A DNA stretch of 64,000 nucleotides from Verrucomicrobiaceae bacterium (GTDB lineage: Bacteria; Pseudomonadota; Gammaproteobacteria; Pseudomonadales; CAMLJR01), in the NCBI GenBank assembly GCA_028293825.1, contig JAQGNY010000048.1:11023-75022 (forward strand). Reading direction: 5' to 3'. The position numbers and the translations under genes are program-made. Under the pieces are notes generated by a model. The model was not told where the DNA came from. It saw nothing but the letters and a program-made list of their open reading frames with translations, and searched no databases. Below, piece by piece: positions 1 through 30,527 of this stretch. Numbering within the stretch: position 1 is the stretch's first letter; the number at the start of each line of letters is the position of its first letter.

Positions 1-3000
1 TACATGATTTATACATCCGGCTCCACCGGCAAGCCGAAAGGCGTTGTCGTTCCGCATCGCACCATCGTTAATTTTCTTTTCAGCATGGCGGACGAGCCTG
101 GTCTTACTCCAGCCGATCGATTGTTGGCGGTGACCACGATTTCATTCGACATTGCGGTGCTCGAATTATTCTTACCGCTGTTCGTCGGTGCGCATTTAAG
201 TATCGCCAGTCGCGACGAAACCAAAGACGGGTTTCGTTTACTCGAACGCATTCGCGAGCAGGAAATTACCGCGATGCAGGCGACGCCCAGCACGTGGCGA
301 TTATTGTTTGCAGCCGGTTGGGAGGGCGGCGCCAATTTCAAAGTATTAACCGGCGGCGAAGCGTTGCCGCAAAATCTGGCCAATGAATTATTAAATAAAG
401 TCGGCAGCGTGTGGAATATGTACGGCCCGACGGAAACCACGATTTGGTCAACGGTGGCACGCGTCGAAATCAATAAACCAGTCACGCTCGGGCAACCGAT
501 CGCAAATACCGTATTGCGTGTGGTCGATGCCGGCGGTAGCAACGTGGCGCTCGGTGTGGCCGGCGAATTATTAATTGGCGGCGAAGGTGTTACGCAGGGT
601 TATTGGCGTCGTCCCGATTTAAATATCGAGCGGTTTTTAACGCTCGATGGCACCCGTTTTTATCGCACTGGCGATTTGGTAAAGCTCGCCGCGAACGGCG
701 ATTTGCTGTATCTCGGCCGTATGGATAACCAGGTTAAATTGCGCGGTTATCGCATCGAACTCGGTGAAATCGAAACGCGGTTGGCGAATCGCGCCGAGAT
801 CGCCGAAGCCGCAGTCGTGGTCCAGGATTTTGGTGACGACGATCAGCGGTTAGTTGCGTTTTATCGTCCGCGTCTGCAAGCGCAAATTACCGTTGCGCAA
901 TTGCGCGATCATCTCGCCGCAGCGCTGCCGTCGTTTATGGTTCCGCAGCAATTTATCGAACTCGAAAAATTCCCGCAGACACCGAACGGAAAAGTCGATC
1001 GCAAAACACTGTCGTCGCCGAACATAGATGCGGCAAATAATACTGCAGCGTCGCCAGCGGCTAATTCCGCTGGCGCAGAGTCGGCCGATCCGGTGGTGCT
1101 TGAGCATTTCCGCCGCTTTCTAAAACAACCGCAGCTGCATGCCAACGCCGACTTTTTCCAAAACGGCGGCCACTCATTGCTCGCTATGCGCATGGTGGCG
1201 GAAATCAATAACAGCATGAGCGCGCAATTGGCGCTGACCGATTTATTTCAGGCGCCTACCGCTGCGGCGTTATCGGTATTGCTCACGCATAAAAATGCCG
1301 ACCAAGAATTCGCTGAAAAGAAAGTCGCAAATGCATTGCACATTCCGCGCAAAGAAAAACGCGATCGGTTTTTAATGTCGTTGCAGCAGCGCCGCCTGTG
1401 GTATCTCGAGCAATTGGAAAAAACCGGCGTTGAATATAATTTGCCGGCGAGCTGGCGCCTGCGCGGAAAATTAAATGTCACTGCGCTGCAACAGGCTTTC
1501 GATATTTTATTCGCGCGCCACGATGCACTGCGTGTGAGTTTGATCGAAGAGAGCGACGGTTTATTTCAACGCGTGCGACCGGCGGTTGCCGGTGTTTTAC
1601 AAATTCAACTACTGAGCGGCGCGAATGAAAGCGAGCGCCTTGCCGCGCTGCAAATTGAATTGCAGCAGCGCAAAACTTTCCGCTTCGATTTAGCGAACGA
1701 CACCTTATTTCAGGCTGTACTTTTCACTGTTGGGCCGGATGATCATGTGCTTTTTGTGCTTGTACACCATGCGGTTTTCGACGGCTGGTCCTTCGATATT
1801 TTACTGGCGGAGCTCGCAGAGAGTTACAACGCGGCGCTGGTCGGACGCGCGCCACAGCTGCCGGAATTACCGGTGCAGTACGGCGATTTTTCAGAGTGGA
1901 TGCGTCAGCGCACCGAAGCCAGCGACGGCACGGATTTAAATTATTGGCTGCAACATCTCGCCGGTGATTTGCCTGTGCTCGATTTGCCGTGCGGTGGCGA
2001 GCGGCCGGAGTTTCAGGAGCATCGCGGCAGCGCGCTGGATTTCGTTTTCGATGTCGATGCGATGGCGCGGTTGCGCGATTTCGCGCGCCAGCAAGGCGTC
2101 ACGTTGTACATGGTGATGATGGCCATCTATAAAGTGCTGCTGTGGCGCTACAGCGGCCAGCGCGACATTATTGTCGGCACGCCGATTTCGGGACGCAATT
2201 TCACTGAAATTAACGATCTGATCGGATTTTTCGTCAACGCATTAACGCTGCGCGATCAGTTGGAGCCAGCACAGTCGTTCGTTGAATTTTTGCAGCAAGT
2301 CAAACAAACCTGTTTAAACGGCTTCGCGCATCAGGAAGTGCCGTTTGAACAGTTAGTCGAAAAATTAAATCCGCTGCGCGATTCCAGCCGCTCGCCGATT
2401 TTCCAAGTAATGCTGATGTATCAGGACATCAGCAACCGCACCGAAGTGTTCGAAGGCATCACGCGCGAGCAAGTCAATGTCGATCGCCCCGGTGTGCAAA
2501 CCGATCTGGATTTCTGGCTGAAATGGGACGGTAAAACGATGGCTGCAGGCTTCGAATACGACCGCGATATTCTGTCTCCCGAAACAGTTGAGGCAATGCG
2601 TGCGGATTTCAGCGCGCTGGTGCAGCGTGTGCCCGAGATGGCTGCAGCTTCGGTATGGGCGCTGGCCGATATGCCGAATGCCGGCGTGCAGCACGCGCTC
2701 GGTGCGTTGAATGACACCGCTACCGATCTGCCTGCCGATGCGCTGATTCACCGCTTGTTCGAGCAACAGGTCGAACGCACGCCGGATGCCATCGCCACCC
2801 GTTACCGCAATATTCGGCTCAGCTACGCCGAGCTCAATGCGCGCGCGAATCGGATCGCGAATTGGTTGGATCAGAACGGCATAAAACCGGGTGCGATGAT
2901 TGGTGTCGCGCTGGCGCCGTCGTCATGGCTGCAGCCGGTATTGCTCGCGGTGTTGAAGCACGGCAGCACCTATGTGCCGATCGATCCGCAATTCCCGCTG

Positions 3001-4614
3001 GAGCGCATTCGCTACATGATCGACAATTCCGGGCTCGCGCTGCTGATTTGCGACGATGCGCTGGATAGTCAATTAGTGGCCGGCACTGAAGCGGCAGTCA
3101 TTCATCTGGAGGCATTGAGCAAGGCGATAGCTGCAAACGACATCGCCAATTTAAATCGAGCCATCGCTGCGGAAAGCCCGGCCTATGTGATTTACACCTC
3201 GGGCTCGACCGGCTTGCCGAAGGGTGTGGTGGTAAACCATCGCGGCGTGACTAATTATTTATTGTCGATGGCGAAGCGACCGGGTTTCACCGCGACCGAT
3301 TGCATTTTGGCGGTGACGACGCTGTCGTTCGATATCGCTGTGACGGAGTTGTTTCTGCCATTGATCTGCGGCGGCAACAGCGTGTTGGTCGACCGCGATG
3401 TTGCTACCGATGGCGATTTGCTGCGCGAAATTATCGAAACCAATGGCATCACGTTGTTGCAGGCAACACCGTCGTCGTGGCGCTTGCTGTTAGGCGCCGG
3501 TTGGACCGGCGACCGTAGCTTTCGTGCGCTATGCGGCGGCGAAGCGCTGCCGCCGGAATTGATTCATCAATTACTGCCGAAAGTGGGCGAGCTGTGGAAC
3601 GTGTATGGACCGACCGAAACTACGGTCTGGTCCACCGCCTATCATGTCCGGAGTGTCGAGGACGCCGGTGTAATCGGTACGCCGCTGGCGAACACTAGTT
3701 GCTTCATTCTCAACGAACAGCAGCAGTTGGTACCGATCGGTGTGGTCGGCGAACTGTGCATTGGCGGTGCTGGCGTGGCGGCGGGTTATTTGAATCGCCC
3801 CGATCTGACGGCCGAGCGATTCATCGATAACCCTTTTGGCGATGGCAAGCTTTATCGCACCGGCGATATGGCGCAATTGCGCGCCGACGGTTTACTGCGT
3901 TATCAGGGGCGCAGCGATCACCAAGTCAAAGTGCGTGGTTATCGCATTGAGCTCGGCGAAATCGAATCCGCGCTGGCGCAATATCCGGCCATAACGCAGG
4001 CCATTGTGATCGCACGCGAATTTCAGCCCGGTGATTATCGCCTCGTCGCTTATGTGGTCGCGAAAAAAGACGAGCCACTCGTAGTCACCGAATTGCGCAA
4101 ATTCCTGCGCGATTATTTGCCGAGCTACATGTTGCCGCAGCATGTGGTTGCGCTCGATGCCTTGCCAATGACGCCGAACTTGAAGGTGGATCGCAAAGCG
4201 TTGCCAGAGCCGGTTATCGAGGTCGATGCCGAAGCGCGCCTGCCAACCACAGAGAACGAATTATTAATCGCGGCAATTTGGTGTGAAGCGCTGCAAGTTG
4301 AGCGCGTGGTGCTCGAGGATAATTTCTTCGACAGCGGCGGACATTCGCTGACGGCGGTCGATGCGATCCGGCGCGTCTATCAACAAACCGGGCATCGCTT
4401 TGAAGTGCGTGAATTCATCATGGAAACGCTGGAGCAGCTGGCGGCGAAGCTCGATCGCGGCGCGGCTCCGGCGGCGGGTTTAGCTGAAAGTGGGACTGGG
4501 GGTGCGGCCGTGAATGGGGCTACGAGTTCGCCGTTTTCCGCGCCCGTCGAGGCCGAAAACGGCCGGGGAGTGTTGGGGCGATTTATGCGAAAATTTTCGG
4601 GTAAGGGCCCATAG
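1..4614 (+). CDS. Non-ribosomal peptide synthetase, C-terminal part (A-T-C-A-T, no TE); 5' end lies outside the window
   Basis: A3 motif YTSGSTG(K/L)PKG twice, YGPTETT twice, YRTGD twice, A10 PNGKVDRK/PNLKVDRK; T domains FFQNGGHSLL and FFDSGGHSLT; C domain HHAVFDGWS. The frame is open from base 1. Confidence 0.97.
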   Translation, partial: YMIYTSGSTGKPKGVVVPHRTIVNFLFSMADEPGLTPADRLLAVTTISFDIAVLELFLPLFVGAHLSIASRDETKDGFRLLERIREQEITAMQATPSTWRLLFAAGWEGGANFKVLTGGEALPQNLANELLNKVGSVWNMYGPTETTIWSTVARVEINKPVTLGQPIANTVLRVVDAGGSNVALGVAGELLIGGEGVTQGYWRRPDLNIERFLTLDGTRFYRTGDLVKLAANGDLLYLGRMDNQVKLRGYRIELGEIETRLANRAEIAEAAVVVQDFGDDDQRLVAFYRPRLQAQITVAQLRDHLAAALPSFMVPQQFIELEKFPQTPNGKVDRKTLSSPNIDAANNTAASPAANSAGAESADPVVLEHFRRFLKQPQLHANADFFQNGGHSLLAMRMVAEINNSMSAQLALTDLFQAPTAAALSVLLTHKNADQEFAEKKVANALHIPRKEKRDRFLMSLQQRRLWYLEQLEKTGVEYNLPASWRLRGKLNVTALQQAFDILFARHDALRVSLIEESDGLFQRVRPAVAGVLQIQLLSGANESERLAALQIELQQRKTFRFDLANDTLFQAVLFTVGPDDHVLFVLVHHAVFDGWSFDILLAELAESYNAALVGRAPQLPELPVQYGDFSEWMRQRTEASDGTDLNYWLQHLAGDLPVLDLPCGGERPEFQEHRGSALDFVFDVDAMARLRDFARQQGVTLYMVMMAIYKVLLWRYSGQRDIIVGTPISGRNFTEINDLIGFFVNALTLRDQLEPAQSFVEFLQQVKQTCLNGFAHQEVPFEQLVEKLNPLRDSSRSPIFQVMLMYQDISNRTEVFEGITREQVNVDRPGVQTDLDFWLKWDGKTMAAGFEYDRDILSPETVEAMRADFSALVQRVPEMAAASVWALADMPNAGVQHALGALNDTATDLPADALIHRLFEQQVERTPDAIATRYRNIRLSYAELNARANRIANWLDQNGIKPGAMIGVALAPSSWLQPVLLAVLKHGSTYVPIDPQFPLERIRYMIDNSGLALLICDDALDSQLVAGTEAAVIHLEALSKAIAANDIANLNRAIAAESPAYVIYTSGSTGLPKGVVVNHRGVTNYLLSMAKRPGFTATDCILAVTTLSFDIAVTELFLPLICGGNSVLVDRDVATDGDLLREIIETNGITLLQATPSSWRLLLGAGWTGDRSFRALCGGEALPPELIHQLLPKVGELWNVYGPTETTVWSTAYHVRSVEDAGVIGTPLANTSCFILNEQQQLVPIGVVGELCIGGAGVAAGYLNRPDLTAERFIDNPFGDGKLYRTGDMAQLRADGLLRYQGRSDHQVKVRGYRIELGEIESALAQYPAITQAIVIAREFQPGDYRLVAYVVAKKDEPLVVTELRKFLRDYLPSYMLPQHVVALDALPMTPNLKVDRKALPEPVIEVDAEARLPTTENELLIAAIWCEALQVERVVLEDNFFDSGGHSLTAVDAIRRVYQQTGHRFEVREFIMETLEQLAAKLDRGAAPAAGLAESGTGGAAVNGATSSPFSAPVEAENGRGVLGRFMRKFSGKGP

Positions 4615-9072: not shown

Positions 9073-10143
9073 TTAATAGGCGCCGTAACTCTGGCTGCGC
9101 TTATTGTTACCTTTAAATTTTTCATACAAATACTGTGCCCACGATACATAGCGAACGAGTTCATCAAAATTATCGGGCATGGTCATGCGCGGAATGGCGT
9201 ACCGATAATTCGGATCAGAAGCTATTTGCGGTCCATTCAAATAACCGGGTAAAGCGCTAAATGCGGCGCTTACGCCGGCGTCACGCAATTTATTAAACAT
9301 GCGCTCGTCATATTGATCTGCCTGCCCGCTGGGATAGCAGAAAATATTACTGGGCTGTTTACATTCCTGCTTAACGCGTTTGAATGATTCGGCAATTTCA
9401 TGCGATTGCTCATCGTCGGAAAGCCCGGAAACGATTCGATGTGTGACAGTATGCGGCGCAAATTGCATACCGCGCTCTTCCATCGTACGAATTTCATCCC
9501 AGGTTGCGGGCCGCTCATCCAGTGGCGGCGCTGACGGAATACGGATTTGCAGTTCTTGGGAAATTTGTTCAACGATTTGATACGCGTTATTGGCGCCGTG
9601 TTTACGAATTGCAGCGATAACAGGGCGATGCGCTTTCGGTATTTGCAAATTGAAGGTTTGCTCTGCGCTTGCGAATTTAACCGTCACAGATGTTGCGGTG
9701 GTATTTTTCAGTAAAAAATTTAATTGATGTTCCCACTGCCACAAGTTGCCGTCGATAAAACCGGTAATTAAAAAGCAGGTCGCCGGACAATCGAATTTTG
9801 AAAATATATTACCCGCCAGTGTGACTTGTTCAGCGAAGCCATCATCGAGCGAGAATGCCACCCATTTCTCGCGCTCCAATGTTCCATTCAATGTGCGTTG
9901 AACGGCTTCCTCCAGCGAAATGAAGCGATAATTGTTTTCACAAAGATAGTTCAAGCAGCGCTCTAAGTGCACAGGGCTCAATCCGTTGACGCCAGCCTCA
10001 GGCACTTCGAGGCGATGCAGCATGAATATCGTCACGTGCGCCGGCAACAGCTGCTTGGCGATGCTATTCAGCATACGCGAAGAGGCAACATTCTTTATTA
10101 ATCGGGCGTAACGAGTATTCATGAATATCCGTGTTTGAGACAA
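9073..10143 (-). CDS. Polysaccharide deacetylase (CE4/NodB family)
   Basis: FMLHR, FSLDDG, PHTVTH, FCYPSG, IPR motifs; start may be the ATG at 10122. Confidence 0.88.
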   Translation of the reverse strand: MSQTRIFMNTRYARLIKNVASSRMLNSIAKQLLPAHVTIFMLHRLEVPEAGVNGLSPVHLERCLNYLCENNYRFISLEEAVQRTLNGTLEREKWVAFSLDDGFAEQVTLAGNIFSKFDCPATCFLITGFIDGNLWQWEHQLNFLLKNTTATSVTVKFASAEQTFNLQIPKAHRPVIAAIRKHGANNAYQIVEQISQELQIRIPSAPPLDERPATWDEIRTMEERGMQFAPHTVTHRIVSGLSDDEQSHEIAESFKRVKQECKQPSNIFCYPSGQADQYDERMFNKLRDAGVSAAFSALPGYLNGPQIASDPNYRYAIPRMTMPDNFDELVRYVSWAQYLYEKFKGNNKRSQSYGAY

Positions 10144-10228: not shown

Positions 10229-11650
10229 TTAGGGAAGATTTTTGACAATTCGCGGCCCCAGCACGTTGGCTAGTACCACCGGCAACTTCTGCCAGCAGGC
10301 AATCAGCAGTCGAAACTTAGGGCTATCCGGTTTTAACGCAGGCAGTTCACCGCCATTACTCAACCAATAATGCCAGTAATGCTGGACCGGCTGGGCGCCC
10401 CATTGCCTCTTAAAATTGAACGTGCCCGAATCTTGCGTCGAGCGTCCAAAATCAAAAAAGCGATATTTGCGCTCGATACAAAACCCCAGTACGGCGTGAT
10501 ACAGCAGCATATTCATGTTTAATGTGTTGACGGTACGCAGCGTTGACGCCCACGGAATTTCCATCATGTCGCGATGGCCGAGCAAAAAAGCAGCAGCGAC
10601 TGGCTTGTTGTTGAGGCGAACGATGACCAGGTGCGATTGATTCGGCATCGCCGTCAAAATATTACGGAAAAACTCTTTTCCATAAACCGGTGTGCCCAAA
10701 TCCCGCATGTTAATGGAAAACACGCGATAGAAATCGTCGAGCAAGTCGAGATGGCCGATGGCAATTTGCGGATCTTCTCGCTGTGCACGTTTTATTTGTG
10801 CGCGGATTTTCGCGCCAATCTCGTCGTCGAGCGCATTGGTATTGTCCGGTAATATTTTGATCATCGACACTTTATCGGTGCGACGTGGCCATTCATTTAA
10901 TACGCGCGTGGCGCGTATTTCGAGGTGAGAAATACCGAGCACTTGCGCGCATTCTTGCGCCTTATTGAGCAGCGCAACTGTCGCCGCATTATTGTTTGTT
11001 AGCGGTCCGCCGTAATTGAAGAACGGCATCGACACGGCGAAGTCGCCAAATAAGCGGCTGCGCAAACGAACCAACGGCAATATCCCGCAGGTTGCACCAT
11101 GGGCAGTGCTGGCCAGCAAATATATAGAGGAGTGGTCGAAGCTGTCGGCGATTACATTGCGCCAGTGATAGCGGTGATAAAGGGCGGCGTGTGGGTGCGA
11201 GTCAACATATGCATCCCACACGCCCTGATCGCCATCGACTATTTCACGAACGGAGATCGGCCCGGCAATCTCCTGTTGGCTAGAAAGGTCGCGCTGATAA
11301 GCACCAAACTGTTGTGGGGTTAGCGCGGCATTATTTGTGTCATCCACAAATAAATTGCAGATTTGCTCCTCAATTTCTTTGCGGCGTAATTCGATGCGAT
11401 CCAGCTCTGCAGAAAGTCGCTGCATCTCCAGCTTGATCGGTTCGATGTCTAGCCCATCGGTTTTCGCCTGACCAAATCGACGCGCGCATTCTTGTTTGTT
11501 TAATTTGGCTTGTTTGAGTAAGGGCTTAAGTGTGTCGAGTATTTCAACCAGCTGTTCGACGTGAGTTGATTTTTCCGTTGCGATTAAAGTATTGGGCCAG
11601 CGCTGTGAACATGCTGCGCCAACATTTTTCAGGATGTCTTTAATCTGCAT
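10229..11650 (-). CDS. FemAB-family (XrtA/PEP-CTERM-associated) aminoacyl transferase with an N-terminal seryl-tRNA-synthetase-like coiled-coil arm
   Basis: WDAYVDSHP, SRLFG, SMPFFNYGG, NMRDLGTP, FDFGRS, FKRQWGA; extra ~125 N-terminal aa containing GQAKTDGLDIEPIKLEMQRLSAELD. Confidence 0.9.
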   Translation of the reverse strand: MQIKDILKNVGAACSQRWPNTLIATEKSTHVEQLVEILDTLKPLLKQAKLNKQECARRFGQAKTDGLDIEPIKLEMQRLSAELDRIELRRKEIEEQICNLFVDDTNNAALTPQQFGAYQRDLSSQQEIAGPISVREIVDGDQGVWDAYVDSHPHAALYHRYHWRNVIADSFDHSSIYLLASTAHGATCGILPLVRLRSRLFGDFAVSMPFFNYGGPLTNNNAATVALLNKAQECAQVLGISHLEIRATRVLNEWPRRTDKVSMIKILPDNTNALDDEIGAKIRAQIKRAQREDPQIAIGHLDLLDDFYRVFSINMRDLGTPVYGKEFFRNILTAMPNQSHLVIVRLNNKPVAAAFLLGHRDMMEIPWASTLRTVNTLNMNMLLYHAVLGFCIERKYRFFDFGRSTQDSGTFNFKRQWGAQPVQHYWHYWLSNGGELPALKPDSPKFRLLIACWQKLPVVLANVLGPRIVKNLP

Positions 11651-11665
11651 TTGCCAGGAAACTCT

Positions 11666-12574
11666 CTAAGCCGTGCAGAGTCGCACGGGCGTGGTTTCTA
11701 GCACCGCAGTCGATTGCAGGCTTTCACTGACCGTACCGAATGGGAATTCTTTGAGGAGCTTTTGTAAGCGCGGTAGACATTTTTCGAGATTGTTGTAATG
11801 GCGAAATCGCGACAATAAGCTCGCGCCACTTACGCGAGGTTGATCTGGGTCAATCTCCCATGGGTGCAGATAAAAAATTGCCGGAGTTTGTCCTGCATTC
11901 GTCGCGCGTTGAAATAACGCACGCGACAGCGCGTACGGATAAAGACGAAAGTAACCACCGCCAGCCGCCGGCATTTGATAGCCGAATAGCTTCGCCGTAG
12001 TCAGTGGAAATTCGATCAACGCGCCGTTCGCGGTTTCGACCTGATAGGGTGATGTGGGCGAGTTGGGTATTCCGTAGCGGTCGTGGTAAACCGGAAAAAT
12101 ACTCGAATCCCAGGTGAATCCAAGCTCGGCCAATATATCCAGCGCCCACAACGAGTCGCGCGTAATTGAATAGCTGGCAGCGCGATAACCGAGAACCGGC
12201 ACCTGCGCGATATCTTCAATCAATTGTTTGGAGCGAATTGTTTCTTCGCGAAATATCGCTGGGGTTTGTTTGTAAATAAGTTGATGACTGTAACCATGCG
12301 ACGCAATTTCGTGACCGCGTGTATTTATTTCGCGCACAAGATGCGGGTATCGTTCGGCAACCCAACCGAGTATAAAAAAAGTTGCTTTGATCTGGGCGGT
12401 ATCGAACAAATCGAGCAGGCATCGCGTATTGCGTTCAACCGTAGATGGCCATTGCTCCCATTGATCCGGCGAAATAACTTTTGCGAGAGCGGCAACATGG
12501 AAATAATCTTCCACATCGACTGTCATCGCGTGGCGAACGATTGGTGCAGTCGGCGAGGTTGCTGGCGTCGTCAT
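11666..12574 (-). CDS. XrtA-system polysaccharide deacetylase (DUF3473 type)
   Basis: MTVDVEDYF, ATFFILGW, EIASHGYSH, GYRAASYS, GGGYFR, YLHPWEIDP. Confidence 0.93.
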   Translation of the reverse strand: MTTPATSPTAPIVRHAMTVDVEDYFHVAALAKVISPDQWEQWPSTVERNTRCLLDLFDTAQIKATFFILGWVAERYPHLVREINTRGHEIASHGYSHQLIYKQTPAIFREETIRSKQLIEDIAQVPVLGYRAASYSITRDSLWALDILAELGFTWDSSIFPVYHDRYGIPNSPTSPYQVETANGALIEFPLTTAKLFGYQMPAAGGGYFRLYPYALSRALFQRATNAGQTPAIFYLHPWEIDPDQPRVSGASLLSRFRHYNNLEKCLPRLQKLLKEFPFGTVSESLQSTAVLETTPVRLCTA

Positions 12575-12648: not shown

Positions 12649-14112
12649 ATGAAAAAACTGATCATCCAAGGAAGCTTGGCCTTTGCATTCGCCGTTTGGG
12701 TAGTGCTGAACTGGCCCGCATTAATTGCCTTACACCTGCGCTGGATTATAGTCGATGAGTCTTATTCGATCGGCTACCCGGTCGTCGCGATAGCGCTGTG
12801 GTTGATTTTTGAGTCACGCAAATCTTTATTGAATATTCCCATTCGGCCATCACTGTTAGCAATCGGGCTGTTTTTGTTGGCGAGTACAGCGAGCCTCGCG
12901 GCGCAGTTGGTGCAGCTGCAATTGCTGCAACAATTGATGGTGCCGATTTCGCTGTGGCTGCTAATTGTGGCTGTGGCGGGATGGCGTTTCGGCCGAGTCT
13001 TATTGTTTCCGTTTTTGCTGATTTATATCGCTATTCCATTGTGGGATGTTTTGGTCGATCCGCTGCGGATGGTGACCGTCATCGTTACGCAAAGCGTTTT
13101 GCATGTCGCGAAAATTCCAGCATTTGTTCTTGGTTATCAAATCACGCTGCCGGACGGAATAATAATGGTCGCAGACGGCTGCAGCGGCCTTAATTTATTG
13201 CTCAGCGCCGTGGTCGTCGGCGCGTTGCAATTTCACCTGATGGTGCAGCCGTTCTGGCGGCGCGCAGCAGTGGCCACATTAGCGGTGATGCTGGGACTAA
13301 TTGATAATTGGATTCGCGTCGTCGCAATCGTATTGGTCGGCCATTTCTCGCACATGCAAAGCGCGCTGGTTTATCACCACGGTAATTTTGGCTGGATAGT
13401 TTTTGCCATAAGCCTGGTGCCATTTTTTATGGCCGTGCGCTGGCTCGATCACGGTGATTATGTAAAACCGGTGGATATTTCTATATCGTCTTCGCCCGCA
13501 CTGAGCGCACACACTGCGAGTTATGCAGCGATTGCTGCTGCCGGCGGTATTGCATTGTTGGCGTTGACGTTGTTTATCGCGCAGCGCGAGCGTTCGGCGA
13601 CGGTGCTGATCGCTCCCGCGCAGGCCATTCCGGCGCAGGCGATGTGGTTGCCGCAATATGAAGGTTACGATCAACAGCAGCATTGGCGAGTTTCGGTTGA
13701 CGCTGCGAGCTTCGATATCTCCGTACTGACCTATTTGCACCAGACCGATACAAAAAAATTAATCTATTTCAGCAATCGTATTGCGGATGAGCAGCACACG
13801 CTATCTGTGGCCACGGTGGCTGTGAGTGACTCGCTACGGATCAATCAAACCGTCATCGATGCTGGCGGGCCGCGCATGGTGTGGTGGTTTTATTTGATCG
13901 ACAGTCATGTCGTCACCGGTGGCCTTGCAGCAAAGTGGCATCAACTGATGGAGTTGCTACGAGGCAACGCAGGCGCGTCGCTGGTAACGATTTCAACACG
14001 CTGTACTTCTTCAAGCTGCAGCGAGTTTTTATCGGATGATGATGTTGCAACGCCCGCAGTTCGCGGTCTTCTAATCAGCTGGTTTACAAAATTAAATATT
14101 GCTTCGCGCTAA
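12649..14112 (+). CDS. xrtA: Exosortase (XrtA/EpsH type) with C-terminal EpsI-like domain
   Basis: Multi-TM; catalytic Cys (VADGCSGL), Arg (NWIRV), His (HHGNFGW); periplasmic C-terminal domain with VWWFY. Confidence 0.85.
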   Translation: MKKLIIQGSLAFAFAVWVVLNWPALIALHLRWIIVDESYSIGYPVVAIALWLIFESRKSLLNIPIRPSLLAIGLFLLASTASLAAQLVQLQLLQQLMVPISLWLLIVAVAGWRFGRVLLFPFLLIYIAIPLWDVLVDPLRMVTVIVTQSVLHVAKIPAFVLGYQITLPDGIIMVADGCSGLNLLLSAVVVGALQFHLMVQPFWRRAAVATLAVMLGLIDNWIRVVAIVLVGHFSHMQSALVYHHGNFGWIVFAISLVPFFMAVRWLDHGDYVKPVDISISSSPALSAHTASYAAIAAAGGIALLALTLFIAQRERSATVLIAPAQAIPAQAMWLPQYEGYDQQQHWRVSVDAASFDISVLTYLHQTDTKKLIYFSNRIADEQHTLSVATVAVSDSLRINQTVIDAGGPRMVWWFYLIDSHVVTGGLAAKWHQLMELLRGNAGASLVTISTRCTSSSCSEFLSDDDVATPAVRGLLISWFTKLNIASR

Positions 14113-15125
14113 ATCCAGCCGGACAGGCGGGCGCGAAAGCGCGTGGGTGTGTTACTCACGTCCTCATGGATGCCGATGCGATGCAGTTGATGTGTCGATG
14201 CCGGTAGCGCATTAATGCCTGATTGCGTGGTAACGGCAGCAGCGTAATTTTCACTGACCAGTTTGGCCGCTGCCGCGCTGAAATCGCCATTGGGATAACA
14301 GAATAAGGTCACCGGTTTTTCCAGTTGCGCTTCAAGTTTGCTGCGGCTATCGACGATTTCGGCATGCAGCGTTTTTTCCGGCAAACCTTTCACCAGCCGC
14401 GTGTGATGACATGTATGCGAGCCAATTTCAACGAGTCCCGTCGCTTGCATCTGTCGCACTTCGGACCAATTCATTAACGAAGGCTCCGGCAACGAAGCAA
14501 GGCCCGTATCCGCTTCCATTGCATCCAAATTTGTACGCAGTTGGGGATCGGACAGACGCTTACATTCATTAATCAATGCGGCGATAGCTTCACGCGAATG
14601 GACGCCGCTAGTTTGATAAGTAGTGAAGGCTTGTAGCCAGTCGAAGCTGCGTAAAGCTTGGCGATCAATGTCGGCAAGCGCGAGTAAGCGCGACAATCGA
14701 TTCGGCCAGAATTGTTGTTTGGTGCCGATCATGTCGGACACTGCGAAAACGGTGGCGGGCAGTTGCTCGGCTTGCAGTGCCGGTAGGGCGAATTCAAAAT
14801 TGTCGCGCCAACCATCGTCGAAGGTGATTGCACACGCGCGCGCCGGTAAGGGTTGATTGCTGGCCCGTCGCTGCGTCCATTCGGAGAGCGGCATTACCGC
14901 AAAAAGTTGTTTGATGATGCGCAGCTGTTGGCGAAAGCTTTCCGGAGTTACTATCATCCCCGGTTCTTCGGTGCGATAGCGCGGATCATGCACTGGCAAT
15001 ATGCGGTGATACATCAGCACCCAGAGTTGATTTTTACGGGTGCTGTAGCGATGTGGGCCAAGTTGGTCTGCGAGAAAATGAAGCGGCGCTTTAACGGCGT
15101 TTTTAATTCGCAAGCTATGACTCAC
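14109..15125 (-). CDS. Polysaccharide deacetylase (CE4 family)
   Basis: VLMYHR, ITFDDGWRDN, GSHTCHH, FCYPNG. Start placed at the GTG at 15125 because the track start (15176) abuts the divergent gene. Confidence 0.88.
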   Translation of the reverse strand: MSHSLRIKNAVKAPLHFLADQLGPHRYSTRKNQLWVLMYHRILPVHDPRYRTEEPGMIVTPESFRQQLRIIKQLFAVMPLSEWTQRRASNQPLPARACAITFDDGWRDNFEFALPALQAEQLPATVFAVSDMIGTKQQFWPNRLSRLLALADIDRQALRSFDWLQAFTTYQTSGVHSREAIAALINECKRLSDPQLRTNLDAMEADTGLASLPEPSLMNWSEVRQMQATGLVEIGSHTCHHTRLVKGLPEKTLHAEIVDSRSKLEAQLEKPVTLFCYPNGDFSAAAAKLVSENYAAAVTTQSGINALPASTHQLHRIGIHEDVSNTPTRFRARLSGWI

Positions 15126-15178
15126 AATAAAAATCCTACGGTTAGCTGAGAACCATTTTAGAGAAAGCGCGCGCAAGT

Positions 15179-16297: not shown

Positions 16298-17482
16298 TTA
16301 GTTCAATAGATTTTTAATGTACTGCTTCAACTCGAACCAAGCAGGCGCCAGATCATCGAACCGATTTATTTCATGCCGCGTGGAAAATGGATGTGGAATG
16401 AAGAATCGTACGACGGCGCGCAATTTTTGAAATACCGAATAACCGGAGCGGGGACGCACGGTAAGCAGTAAATTATCGAGATCGCCTAACAGCCAACGTA
16501 AGCGGCGACCGGTGCTATATTTATCGACGATTTGCGGGTTTTCTTCATTGCAGACGCGGTACAGTAAATGAGGGAAATCGACCCCGGCGTCTATAGCCAG
16601 CTGCAGCGAACCCCAAAAGCGCGTATTCACTTCCATTAGATACGCTTTACCTGCGGGATCGACGCGAAACTCAATCATTGCGACACCGTGCCACTCGGCG
16701 GCGTCTAATAGCTTTTTTGCCATGCCGTGCATTTGCGGATCTAACGGCGCACTTTCTGACAGGGTGCTGACGCCGCCAGCGGGTGGTTTTTCTCGCAAGC
16801 GTTTGTGAGCAAAGAACGTAACGGGTTTGCCGTGGTCATAAAGCGCAAATATTCCAGCGCCATGCCCTGGAATAAATTCTTGCAGGATGAAGGGGTAATT
16901 GCGCAAATACGGTTTTTCGAGCAGCAGCTTTAATTGGAGCACATCGTTTGCGACGTGCACGGTTGTGTTCAACCAGCCGCTAGGTGTGCGGATACGAGAC
17001 AGGCAGGGTTTAATTACAACAGGATATTGCGTTACTTGGCGCTCATCAATTTCCGCTGAGCTGTTAAAATGACGACTTTCCGGGTAAGCCACGCCACACT
17101 TTTCGGCAAGCAGGACTAAACTCCATTTGTCGGCAAGCGCTAATACGGTTTCGTACGATGCAAATGGGATTCGGCAAATGCCCAGTTGATTGTTGAGTTG
17201 AAGGACCGTGCGGCTGCTTATTTCAGTGGTCGGAAAAACCCAATCGATTTTTTCGGATTGAATAATTTCAGTCAGCCAAGTAAAAAATATTTCTGGCTCG
17301 TGAGCTGCGGAGGGATGCTGAAAATATTGTGCACTGTAACGTGAGCTACCAGAGAGCGCAGTCGGCGCCTCATCTGCTGTAATCACTCTTAGGTAAGTAT
17401 GACGCCCTAAAGAGCGAACAACGGCGAGAGCACTGCGTTGATTGGCATCCAGGACGAGTATTGTTGATTTTTTATTGGGCAT
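16298..17482 (-). CDS. ATP-grasp carboxylate-amine ligase
   Basis: DKW, YPVVIKP, ILQEFIPG, GVAMIEFR, LMEVNTRFWGSL. Confidence 0.9.
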   Translation of the reverse strand: MPNKKSTILVLDANQRSALAVVRSLGRHTYLRVITADEAPTALSGSSRYSAQYFQHPSAAHEPEIFFTWLTEIIQSEKIDWVFPTTEISSRTVLQLNNQLGICRIPFASYETVLALADKWSLVLLAEKCGVAYPESRHFNSSAEIDERQVTQYPVVIKPCLSRIRTPSGWLNTTVHVANDVLQLKLLLEKPYLRNYPFILQEFIPGHGAGIFALYDHGKPVTFFAHKRLREKPPAGGVSTLSESAPLDPQMHGMAKKLLDAAEWHGVAMIEFRVDPAGKAYLMEVNTRFWGSLQLAIDAGVDFPHLLYRVCNEENPQIVDKYSTGRRLRWLLGDLDNLLLTVRPRSGYSVFQKLRAVVRFFIPHPFSTRHEINRFDDLAPAWFELKQYIKNLLN

Positions 17483-19435: not shown

Positions 19436-20443
19436 TTATGTATGTAACAGGGGTAATATTTGGGTTAGCTTTTCGCTCCACTCTTTTTCTAAAGCCTCTT
19501 TAAAAACGGTAACTTCCGCTTTAAATTTTTCATGATCCTTCAAAATAATTTCAACGGCTTTTGCAATCGGTTTTGATTCATTGGCAACATGCAGGCCGCC
19601 CGCTCTAAAATATTTTTTCAGGGCGATACTATCCGACAAAATAAACGGCTTGCGTGCCGCAACTGCTTCGTAAGCGCCACAGACAAGGCAATCTTCGCGA
19701 GTGGTGAGATCGATGATGACATCTGATGTACAAATTAAGTTGTGATAATCCGCGTCTGGTACGTAGCCAGTTAAAGTTACGTTATTGGGAATGGGCTTGC
19801 CGTAGCCTTTTTCCCGCCCTTTGCTGGATCCGGTGATAAGAAATTGAACATTCGGCAAAGTTCCCGCCGCTGCAATCACCTCATAATAAGGTTCGTCTTG
19901 CGCCCATGTGCATATAAATAGGACTTGAGGTTTTTTGCTCGCAGATTTTTCTATCGCAGCGGATGAATCTAGATCGTCAAAGTCTTTGGGGAGTGGGTCG
20001 GGCAGCACCAAGGGGCGTCCACCAACGCTGCTAACTCTATCCGCAAGAGCATCATTGGTCACAATAACAAAGTCGGCGAATCGTATAATGAAGTTTGCGA
20101 GTGGCGCCAAAATAAATTTTGCTTTGTTTGGGTATATGCCGGCGTTATGTGCATCTACTACAACTGTGTAACGGATGATCCGCTTTAGTAATACCGCAAT
20201 TAACGCCAGAACAATCGACGGGTTTTGTACGAACACTGTTTTCTTATACCACCTCCGTAATAGAGCAACGGATTTTACGGTCGATTTTACGTAGCGTGTG
20301 GCGCGGTTGCCTGGTTCGATAATCTCGACAAGCTCCGCATTAAGCCGTAAAGACAGGTTTCTATTTCGAACTTGCTTCTCCCACGTTAACCAAAGAGCCC
20401 AGGGTTTTTCTTTATAGTCGAGCGACTCTGGTTTTATTCTCAA
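19436..20443 (-). CDS. Glycosyltransferase (GT-B fold, GT4-like)
   Basis: VQNPS, VDAHN, DEPY, LTGYVPD, CGAYEAVAARKP. Confidence 0.8.
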   Translation of the reverse strand: MRIKPESLDYKEKPWALWLTWEKQVRNRNLSLRLNAELVEIIEPGNRATRYVKSTVKSVALLRRWYKKTVFVQNPSIVLALIAVLLKRIIRYTVVVDAHNAGIYPNKAKFILAPLANFIIRFADFVIVTNDALADRVSSVGGRPLVLPDPLPKDFDDLDSSAAIEKSASKKPQVLFICTWAQDEPYYEVIAAAGTLPNVQFLITGSSKGREKGYGKPIPNNVTLTGYVPDADYHNLICTSDVIIDLTTREDCLVCGAYEAVAARKPFILSDSIALKKYFRAGGLHVANESKPIAKAVEIILKDHEKFKAEVTVFKEALEKEWSEKLTQILPLLHT

Positions 20444-20589: not shown

Positions 20590-21465
20590 TTACTTTATCT
20601 GCAGTACAGGCGGAGCCGGTGGGCTTGCGGCTGCGGGCGTGCTGGTAGTGGTTGTCTTGGTTCCAGTTCCAACAAAGGGATTGCCTTTTGCGTCCACAGC
20701 GGCTGGCGTATCTGAAGTTAGCACAATATCGTCGACGTACAGTTTTTGCGTAGCGGGTGAGCCGCCATTCCAATACGTAAACATATGGGCACGATCAGAA
20801 AACGATGACGCGCTAACGAGGGTTTTTCTGTTAGTAATGTCCTTCAACAATTCGCCATTTTTCCAGACGCGAACACGCGCAGTACCACCGCTTGAAACCG
20901 GGACATTATCGAATTTAACGTAGAATTCATATGTCTCCCAAGTGCCTAAGACAGGAGCATATTTTGCTGCCCCAAAATCGTCCCATACCTGCTCGCCTTC
21001 AAAAATGTAAGAATCAGCAATGGCAGAGCCTTTTGGATTTATATACCAATCGTTGTAACCCTCATTCGAGTTAGATGCGCTTAAGGTGTGAATTCTCAAG
21101 AATTTGAGGCGGTTTCCCTCACTCGTTGAGTTATAATTAAAGCCCGCAGGCATAAATGTTCTAACCCTATACCAGATCTGATCGCCTTTTTTTAATACAG
21201 TCGGATAATTTATGATCCCACCCCAAGTTCCGAAGGCTGTAGCACCTTTGGTGATATTCATCTCGACAGCCTTTCCTCCCTCATAAGAGTTGGTGTCCGT
21301 GAAAAATGTACCTCCTGCTGCATCGCTGAACCCTCCGCTTCCTTGAGCGGCTTTTCCCAATACGCCATTGTTGAAGTTCATGTCAATCCGCCATGCGAAT
21401 GCGCTACAGGCGGTGACTGATGCTGCCAGCACAACAATGGATTTGAATATAAGTTTTTTAAACAT
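20590..21465 (-). CDS. Secreted beta-sandwich carbohydrate-active protein (polysaccharide-lyase-like) with Thr-rich linker and PPAPPVLQIK tail
   Basis: Signal peptide ending SAFA; WYRVRTFMPAGF, KFLR, WETYEFYVK, RVRVWKNG, LYVDDIVL typical of jelly-roll lyase/LamG folds. Confidence 0.65.
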   Translation of the reverse strand: MFKKLIFKSIVVLAASVTACSAFAWRIDMNFNNGVLGKAAQGSGGFSDAAGGTFFTDTNSYEGGKAVEMNITKGATAFGTWGGIINYPTVLKKGDQIWYRVRTFMPAGFNYNSTSEGNRLKFLRIHTLSASNSNEGYNDWYINPKGSAIADSYIFEGEQVWDDFGAAKYAPVLGTWETYEFYVKFDNVPVSSGGTARVRVWKNGELLKDITNRKTLVSASSFSDRAHMFTYWNGGSPATQKLYVDDIVLTSDTPAAVDAKGNPFVGTGTKTTTTSTPAAASPPAPPVLQIK

Positions 21466-29276: not shown

Positions 29277-30527
29277 TCAAATAAAATCGGCTGGTGCGAA
29301 TGGCTTTAGTTGATGTGTTATTTCCGCTATCCAATATCCACTAAAAATTAATTTAGAAAAATTTTTTCGGAGTAACTGGTTGGGGGTTCTGGCAATACGC
29401 GAAATAAATTGATGTGTTTTTACTAATGCGTTCTCAATGGAAAATTTTATATGAGGACGCTGTAAGCGCCCTGAAAGTAGCGGTGGTTGTGCGGTTCCAA
29501 GTATGGCTTTGTACTGTGAGTCGCCTGCTAAGAAATTGTAAATGGCCATACCGAGTGCCGCGTTGTACTCGATGGCCAAGAGATGAGATACATAACCGGG
29601 ACGCAACATATTGCGATCCTCGGAAGCAAAGCCCGATTGCAACATCAACACGGTATTACGCCAAACAAAATTATATATATAGCCGATTGCCCTTTCCCCA
29701 CAGCAAATTCGCAGCATTTGGATTTCGCCTCGGTTAAATGCATTGCGTATCAGAGCGAGATGAAATTTTACCCATTTTGGATGAGCGAATGAGCCGGTTC
29801 TGCCGACACGGTTCCAGCGCTCCGTGTGCAACTGTCCCATTCGCATAAAATAGTCACAGGCTTGATCCACATCAGCGGCGCAATCTATTTTAAGAGTGCC
29901 TTCGTTGGAGTATTCCTTAAAAGAGCGTCGGATTTGCCAGCGCCGACTTTTACTCAATTTATTTAAAATAGATTCGACAGTCGTATTTGAATCGAGTGGT
30001 GTAACCCATATTCCGAGCGACCTATCGGTTATTTTTTTGAGCGCTAACCGTTGTTGATCGACCGAGTCATACGCTGCTTTCGGCACGTTCGTCAGGCGTA
30101 ATTCGTTCCAATCGAAAAGACTGTTATTTAAGTCGAAGATGAAGTGGTTTAGCGCAGCTGTTTCATGTCCTCTCTGCGTTAATAATCCGTTGTATTCAAT
30201 AAACATATTGAGATGGTGTTTACATGATTCATTTAATGTCACCATGGTCGACTTAAAAAAATGTCGCCGTTTTATGGTGTCATTACCAACCACGGCAAGC
30301 GCAATTAGCTCGCCTTTGAAGTAGCAACGATAGATAGATAGTGATGTGTGAGCTGATACAATTTGCAGCCAGGCGCCAATCCAGCTCCAGCTTAAAAAAA
30401 ATGAACAGTCTGACAAAGGCTCTAGTGCCCGCCACTCACGCTCCAGCGTTTCGATGCTGTCCAGAGCGCTGAAGCTGCCTTCATACCCTGACCCCTCTAT
30501 GTAGCTAATGGACTCCGTCAATTGCAA
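29277..30527 (-). CDS. GNAT protein of the CelD/BcsL (Fem-like Acetyltransf_6) family
   Basis: FFLSWSW, IEYNGLL, LHTERW, LQSGF, RPGYVSH, YNFLAGDSQYK. Confidence 0.82.
   Translation of the reverse strand: MQLTESISYIEGSGYEGSFSALDSIETLEREWRALEPLSDCSFFLSWSWIGAWLQIVSAHTSLSIYRCYFKGELIALAVVGNDTIKRRHFFKSTMVTLNESCKHHLNMFIEYNGLLTQRGHETAALNHFIFDLNNSLFDWNELRLTNVPKAAYDSVDQQRLALKKITDRSLGIWVTPLDSNTTVESILNKLSKSRRWQIRRSFKEYSNEGTLKIDCAADVDQACDYFMRMGQLHTERWNRVGRTGSFAHPKWVKFHLALIRNAFNRGEIQMLRICCGERAIGYIYNFVWRNTVLMLQSGFASEDRNMLRPGYVSHLLAIEYNAALGMAIYNFLAGDSQYKAILGTAQPPLLSGRLQRPHIKFSIENALVKTHQFISRIARTPNQLLRKNFSKLIFSGYWIAEITHQLKPFAPADFI

Follow-up and report, generated by a model that had tools for sequence, protein, structure and literature searches.

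A seryl-tRNA synthetase N-terminal arm fused to a FemAB-family protein in a gammaproteobacterial XrtA/PEP-CTERM exopolysaccharide locus

We describe a gene that joins an N-terminal arm of seryl-tRNA synthetase (SerRS) type to a complete FemAB-family domain, found in a stretch of 64,000 nucleotides (hereafter the window) from contig JAQGNY010000048.1 of assembly GCA_028293825.1, a gammaproteobacterial draft genome deposited as Verrucomicrobiaceae bacterium. The gene is a minus-strand open reading frame (ORF) of 473 amino acid residues (10229..11650), and its product consists of i) a SerRS-like domain, residues 1-105 (11336..11650), delimited by profiles, PDB searches, hhalign, and structure models; ii) a variable linker, residues 106-144 (11219..11335), in which alignments reveal a semi-conserved L-P-x-R-F motif; and iii) a tandem-GNAT Fem-type domain of the TIGR03019 family, residues 145-473 (10232..11218), recognized by NCBIfam, Pfam, and Foldseek and without an internal coiled-coil insertion, all three on the minus strand. 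The initial annotation of this DNA had placed a captured SerRS arm at 11351..11650, corresponding to codons 1-100 of the ORF, and the evidence below upholds the capture. Our preferred reading, to which we give a probability of roughly 0.58, is that Ser-tRNA(Ser) is brought in by the captured arm and that, once a deacetylase has freed an amine on a sugar, the Fem domain N-serylates it; the more modest prediction that the fusion protein binds tRNA seems to us somewhat safer.

As far as sequence comparison goes, homology of the arm to the SerRS N-terminus is borderline from the window sequence alone and firm once relatives are used. The parallel with the N-terminus of E. coli SerRS, which the initial annotation drew, is recovered by phmmer: residues 1-140, searched against 177,635 PDB sequences, rank E. 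coli SerRS chains (6r1m) at the top (E 0.0011-0.0012), with residues 47-99 aligned to 48-98 across a common G-Q-A-K / D-I-E-P tip. The significant match to Seryl_tRNA_N (PF02403) that had been expected fails for the window sequence on its own and holds at the profile level. Specifically, the arm alone scores 22.9 bits (E 1.1e-4, in register from 32-99 to 32-99 of 108) against a gathering cut-off of 28.2, and the whole protein only 18.0 bits, so that the window arm is a divergent homolog of PF02403 rather than a member by Pfam's curated cut-off; in a scan of the genome with the same family it comes second (20.7 bits) after the true SerRS (82.9 bits).

Relatives were sought in 41 related genomes, 22 of which carry a homolog; 20 homologs were extracted, and 17 of the 20 have an N-terminal extension. 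PF02403 is the top Pfam family for every one of these 17 arms (best E 5.9e-9), the runner-up family appearing in 5. A profile of the 17 arms, run against the same PDB sequences, returns SerRS in the top 7 places (E 1.9e-7 to 9.8e-4), with ungapped alignments in register at about 28-99 to 28-99, and meets its first non-SerRS match, a coiled coil, at E 0.0029; hhalign pairs the arms with 30 SerRS N-termini from the same relatives at 97.5% probability (E 6.8e-12, 73 columns); and a profile of 120 full-length homologs draws no PDB sequences at E <= 0.01 other than 8 SerRS, matched from residues 6-20 to about residue 100. By this last comparison, the sequence of the arm lies nearer to SerRS than that of the catalytic domain to any Fem enzyme of solved structure. 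An exhaustive HMMER search of 1.84 billion representative proteins with the arm profile gave 325 matches at E <= 0.001, and among the best 150 of these, which we examined, 132 carry PF02403, 23 carry PF13480 (Fem GNAT), and 2 carry PF00587. Identity between the arm and SerRS is about 20-35%. These profiles establish the arm as a homolog of the N-terminal domain of SerRS, beyond a look-alike coiled coil.

Many of the best arm-profile matches (P0122-P0271) are 55-200 residues long, hardly more than the arm itself, and may be metagenomic gene fragments or stand-alone arm proteins; one match of 968 residues (P0161) is hit by the arm profile in 7 stretches. A word-indexed protein search with residues 1-145 found only the query itself among 1041 candidates, a reflection of the limited sensitivity of that search and not of uniqueness.

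The arm also lies inside the translated product, as the initial annotation had assumed. The fusion gene starts 15 nt past the stop codon of the co-directional upstream gene, the initiator M1 and the first helices can be aligned throughout the genus, and the ratio of nonsynonymous to synonymous substitution rates (dN/dS) of the arm, 0.16-0.21, lies between those of the Fem domain (0.09-0.14) and the linker (0.31-0.65), all of them rough values because dS is saturated. Together these observations indicate that purifying selection acts on a translated arm.

An AlphaFold2 model of the whole protein (mean predicted local distance difference test score [pLDDT] 94.3, predicted template modeling score [pTM] 0.85) is built of helices at residues 3-8 and 10-17, a 45-residue helix at 21-65, a 4-residue turn, a helix at 70-100, the linker, and the tandem-GNAT body, and a model of the arm alone (pLDDT 96.3) has the same elements. 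Confidence is above pLDDT 95 for all four arm helices, the long ones at 21-65 and 70-100 included, and lower around the linker (67-83 at residues 101-130). Hairpin helix 1 (residues 21-65; 11456..11590, minus strand), defined by DSSP of the models, charge, and conserved columns, is net basic, and hairpin helix 2 (residues 70-100; 11351..11443, minus strand), defined by the models and charge, is net acidic, a pattern common to Fem arms and SerRS arms. The 18 best PDB matches of the arm in Foldseek are all SerRS, the best being E. coli SerRS (TMq 0.73, root-mean-square deviation 3.1 Å over 104 columns, E 5.5e-3), and VIA-align likewise puts SerRS first (Z 10.0, 101 residues, model residues 1-103). 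The modeled fold is consistent with SerRS homology and is no independent proof of it; the hairpin is a common fold, with 106 of 48,161 PDB representatives aligning to the arm at Z >= 8.

SerRS arms in the window's order (SerRS genes L001 and L032-L060 of relatives, and the resident gene) come in two types, a short-tipped one as in E. coli and Pseudomonas and one with a tip 4 residues longer, and the longer-tipped arm is found in the window's own genus and in some other families. When the Fem-arm profile is compared with the 30 SerRS, 12 short-tipped enzymes, from other families of the order, match at E 1.3e-10 to 1.3e-4 (about 29-99 to 29-99), and the other 18, including the resident SerRS at 9.3 bits, have E values of at least 0.0026. 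Aligned in this way, the arm keeps the exact helix lengths and register of the short-tipped SerRS type. In twenty alignment columns, residue class is conserved both among the Fem arms and among the short-tipped SerRS arms; the two groups have the same class in 17 of these columns, including (Fem/SerRS) K52/R51, R57/K56, G60/G59, K63/K62, and G66/G65. The 17 comprise positions of the hydrophobic core as well as the basic residues and glycines just listed, which lie at the tip and where helix 1 ends. Three conserved columns differ (L38/R37, K42/Q41, and K46/E45), and the net charge of Fem arms is +2.1 versus -2.4 for SerRS arms.

The resident synthetase does not appear to be the immediate source. 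BLASTP of the arm against the resident SerRS gave no match (E 2), because the resident arm is of the different, longer-tipped type, and an arm hidden Markov model (HMM) built with the window sequence excluded, searched against 32,245 genome ORFs of at least 60 residues, scored it at 9.9 bits (E 1.6). We therefore reject a recent capture from the resident serS, given the absence of a BLASTP match, the weak HMM score, and the longer-tipped arm.

The remainder of the protein is a complete Fem-type domain, in line with the FemAB transferase of the initial annotation. Residues 145-473 match TIGR03019 end to end in NCBIfam (353.5 bits against a cut-off of 260.35, profile positions 3-330 of 330), and Pfam recognizes Acetyltransf_6 and FemAB_like (30.8 bits, cut-off 27) in this part; PF02388 scores 20.5 bits on the fusion protein, under its cut-off of 24, and residues 1-144 lie outside all Fem models. 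The best Foldseek match of the catalytic body is Weissella FemX (E 3.9e-15, TMt 0.69, target length 335), its further neighbors include Sbb17/Sba18 (aminoacyl-tRNA-dependent peptide synthases), S. aureus FemX, MprF, and FemA, and the matches listed, to rank 21, are aminoacyl-tRNA-dependent transferases throughout. The catalytic domain has the Fem fold. No class II synthetase core was found after the arm, PF00587 giving no match and TIGR00414 matching the arm only (10.3 bits against 301.65); lacking that catalytic core, the fusion protein is not a SerRS, and the single true SerRS of the genome lies elsewhere, on contig C44 (G000:C44:38982-40253, 535 bits).

Among the best 120 of 4672 database homologs, the arm is found by HMM in 119, the exception being an entry of 385 residues. 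PF02403 is precomputed beside PF13480 in 70 of the 120 listed homologs (counted by hand); the architecture is already visible in the precomputed domain annotation of homologs, and the database names go no further than 'FemAB family... associated protein' or 'serine/alanine adding enzyme'. Armed loci account for 24 of the 80 among loci from 185,579 species genomes and carry labels that include Spongiibacteraceae, Cellvibrionaceae, Marinobacter, Saccharospirillum, Oleiphilus, Granulosicoccaceae, Thiotrichaceae, Allohahella, and one Acidovorax; armless forms prevail in Nitrospirota, Acidobacteriota, Geobacteraceae, and others. The armed forms are a mostly marine gammaproteobacterial subclade of the TIGR03019 family, and the suggestion that the arm bears on XrtA-locus FemABs stands for this subclade and not for XrtA-locus FemABs in general.

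A quick IQ-TREE tree of the catalytic domain (LG+G4, 92 rows, leaving out the duplicates L019 and L023 and the truncated rows L028, L062, L093, L108, L118, and L139) places 32 of the 37 armed rows in one clade of 35 (SH-aLRT 94). The minimum number of changes in arm state on this tree is 6, of which well-supported branches force only 2, and the tree fits an arm history of one or a few gains and some losses. Three rows, L109 and L076/L083, have no detectable arm, yet are nested inside the main armed clade, and the Glaciecola-labeled one among them bears a 77-residue N-terminal extension unrecognized by the arm HMM that may be a decayed arm. The armed row L061 is labeled Verrucomicrobiaceae, a label that looks unreliable, as its catalytic domain nests in the window's gammaproteobacterial genus.

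We propose that the gene product acts in the cytoplasm as a Fem-family transferase that depends on aminoacyl-tRNA and serves the XrtA/PEP-CTERM exopolysaccharide pathway. It would have arisen when the Fem gene of a gammaproteobacterial ancestor gained at its N-terminus a whole bacterial SerRS N-terminal domain, two short helices plus an antiparallel helical hairpin of about 45 + 30 residues. The arm would hold the long variable arm and the T-arm cleft of tRNA(Ser) in the manner of SerRS; Ser-tRNA(Ser) would then be delivered to the Fem active site; the neighboring cytoplasmic NodB-type deacetylase would free an amine on a lipid- or nucleotide-linked sugar; and the Fem domain would move the seryl group to this free sugar amine, leaving an N-seryl amino sugar in the exopolysaccharide. 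Fem enzymes do transfer the aminoacyl group of an aminoacyl-tRNA to an amine (PMC4964394; articles given here by PMC number are cited from part of their text). Neither the Fem protein nor the deacetylase has an obvious signal peptide when the N-termini are read by eye, which suits a cytoplasmic reaction with aminoacyl-tRNA. A bolder claim, which we advance tentatively and at somewhat less than even odds, is that a polysaccharide precursor would here be aminoacylated with the aid of tRNA, the first case of its kind, and that the sequence of the enzyme itself would spell out the donor: the armed subclade would divert Ser-tRNA(Ser) from translation to N-serylate a de-N-acetylated exopolysaccharide sugar.

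Several points weigh against this reading. The sub-threshold PF02403 score of the window arm is barely above those of other coiled coils in the same genome (18.2 and 16.0 bits); no Foldseek match of the arm in the PDB reaches E 0.001, and unrelated helical hairpins tie with SerRS at Z 9.2-9.8 in VIA-align; and the saturation of dS blunts the dN/dS values. The SerRS arm acts across a dimer and a Fem enzyme is presumably monomeric, so that the geometry may differ. There is no tRNA(Ser) gene in the window and no extra tRNA(Ser) among the 34 tRNAs found in the draft genome, which include 4 standard tRNA(Ser) isoacceptors and no tRNA(Sec), a negative that carries little information, and the deacetylase is an immediate neighbor in only about half of the loci. 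Finally, the tRNA proposed for the helical arm of FemA is tRNA(Gly), whose variable arm is not of the long kind (PMC4964394), so a helical arm alone does not dictate tRNA(Ser), and the amino acid specificity of Fem enzymes also comes from the active site and the acceptor stem (PMC2655667, PMC2175331).

These last considerations lead to an alternative in which the SerRS-derived arm binds tRNA, with a general affinity or for some other tRNA, and the Fem active site sets the amino acid, serine not being required. The proposal that the FemA helical arm binds glycyl-tRNA (PMC4964394) is in its favor; so are an identity to SerRS of only about 20-35% and the more basic character of the Fem arm, in both the three deviating columns and the net charge, which would suit less specific backbone binding. 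We nevertheless regard it as unlikely, because the helices match those of SerRS exactly in length and register, ungapped over about 70 columns, because the conserved tip residues are retained, and because relatives without the arm function, so that the arm has presumably been kept for a specific gain. Less probable again is a hairpin that has lost RNA binding and become a protein-protein or oligomerization module, for example for docking to the exopolysaccharide machinery or to SerRS: long helical hairpins are common as interaction modules, as the 106 PDB representatives illustrate, and a flexible, variable linker joins the hairpin to the catalytic domain, but conservation is not confined to the heptad core and takes in the polar and basic residues that the tip has in common with SerRS, the charge of helix 1 is basic, and the catalytic partner belongs to an enzyme family that uses aminoacyl-tRNA. 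That the likeness is a chance or convergent coiled coil, or the arm region untranslated, is very improbable and already largely refuted, since the sub-threshold single-sequence Pfam score, the 16-18 bits of other coiled coils in the genome, and the negative BLASTP against the resident SerRS are set against strong profile-level evidence, a match that begins near residue 6-11 in both proteins, a conserved M1, and purifying selection on the arm.

The setting of the gene accords with recruitment of Ser-tRNA(Ser) to sugar serylation insofar as the window is a textbook XrtA/PEP-CTERM locus. The co-directional gene 15 nt upstream (11666..12574, minus strand) encodes an XrtA-system polysaccharide deacetylase (TIGR03006, 405.3 bits against 276.2), and divergent from it, NCBIfam identifies an exosortase A of 487 residues with a C-terminal EpsI-like domain (12649..14112, plus strand), which scores 186.8 with TIGR03109 (cut-off 208), 132.3 with TIGR02602 (105.55), and 41.8 with EpsI (42.8); the presence of this enzyme marks an XrtA/PEP-CTERM exopolysaccharide locus. 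It is also a weak XrtW match. TIGR03027, TIGR03007, TIGR03006, PrsT, PrsR, and PrsK are above their cut-offs in the locus, the three Prs genes lying downstream in the window, and TIGR03018, XrtA (TIGR03109), and TIGR03097 are sub-threshold; the contents include an export protein, a chain-length determinant, a tyrosine kinase, the XrtA-EpsI-like fusion, glycosyltransferases, and an O-antigen-ligase-like protein.

Of the 41 armed loci, 21 have a same-strand neighbor of TIGR03006 type within the fetched flanks, as have 26 of the 59 loci with an armless form. Adjacency to a deacetylase is equally frequent where the arm is lacking, and we reject it as a sign of the armed form. Three genes of the polysaccharide deacetylase family surround the Fem gene, all on the minus strand (9073..10143, 11666..12574, and 14109..15176); only 11666..12574 is a canonical TIGR03006, and the other two are weak matches to IcaB/PgaB-type deacetylases. 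An ATP-grasp (carbamoyl-phosphate-synthase-like) gene in the same locus (16298..17482, minus strand) is possibly another amino acid- or carboxylate-ligating step for the polysaccharide. Directly upstream of the exopolysaccharide locus is a nonribosomal peptide synthetase fragment, a 5′-open ORF of 1537 residues (1..4614, plus strand), whose adenylation part scores 409 bits with TIGR03098 (exosortase A-associated acyl-CoA ligase) against a cut-off of 592. The locus ORFs 19436..20443, 20590..21465, and 29277..30527, all on the minus strand and 291-416 residues long, went unmatched in NCBIfam at the thresholds applied.

To our knowledge, no TIGR03019 enzyme has been characterized. The fusion is not described in the literature searched, a search that lay outside subscription journals, database architectures of the InterPro type, and supplementary files, and it is absent from the parts consulted of PMC9379638, PMC13712802, PMC12945691, and PMC1569441; the only paper found that mentions FemAB together with PEP-CTERM is PMC3684757, in which, for the part of the text seen, the gene merely figures in a locus table. 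A SerRS-homologous arm offers a concrete and testable guess at both the kind of donor (aminoacyl-tRNA) and its identity (Ser-tRNA(Ser)). The fusion is, moreover, a clear-cut example from nature of a module for tRNA recognition passing from a synthetase to an enzyme that uses aminoacyl-tRNA outside the ribosome, and it bears on the choice of tRNA by Fem, MprF, and similar enzymes and on the engineering of donor specificity. If the preferred reading is true, seryl-substituted amino sugars would be predicted in the biofilm and floc polysaccharides of marine gammaproteobacteria; under the bolder claim, the armless TIGR03019 majority would also be tRNA-dependent, with other donors.

How does the fusion protein compare with known systems? 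The armless TIGR03019 form (about 340-370 residues) has the same catalytic domain and the same type of locus, with a deacetylase frequent upstream in both, and lacks the 144 additional N-terminal residues that make up the arm and linker of the window protein. With the short-tipped gammaproteobacterial SerRS of E. coli and Pseudomonas, the window protein shares homologous residues from about 6 to 102, with the same helix lengths, the same register as counted from each protein's N-terminus, and the same tip residues; it differs in having no class II core and in an arm that is more basic and about 20-35% identical. S. aureus FemA and FemB are likewise Fem enzymes whose arm, a pair of antiparallel helices, is believed to bind the donor tRNA, and the FemA arm is, as the initial annotation had it, an internal coiled coil likened to SerRS by structure, namely an insertion in GNAT domain 2 (residues 246-307) (PMC4964394). 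The arm described here is unlike that of FemA in being N-terminal and homologous to SerRS by sequence; there is no FemA-type internal arm in the window protein, whose 329-residue catalytic part fits the 330-position model end to end, and FemA ranks only 12th among the structural matches of the catalytic body.

Synthetase parts have been joined to aminoacyl-tRNA-dependent transferases before, routing one amino acid out of translation: fungal ErdS is a fusion of AspRS to DUF2156, and LysX contains a LysRS paralog (PMC9437257). These proteins, however, fuse an entire active synthetase, whereas the window protein has taken the tRNA-recognition arm only, and charging must therefore come from the cell's own SerRS. 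Besides these fusions, a near concept is METTL6, an unrelated enzyme that gains selectivity for tRNA(Ser) because the N-terminal stalk of SerRS grips the long variable arm (PMC11479938). In that eukaryotic case SerRS is a cofactor acting in trans; in the window protein the same stalk would act in cis, as a consequence of gene fusion.

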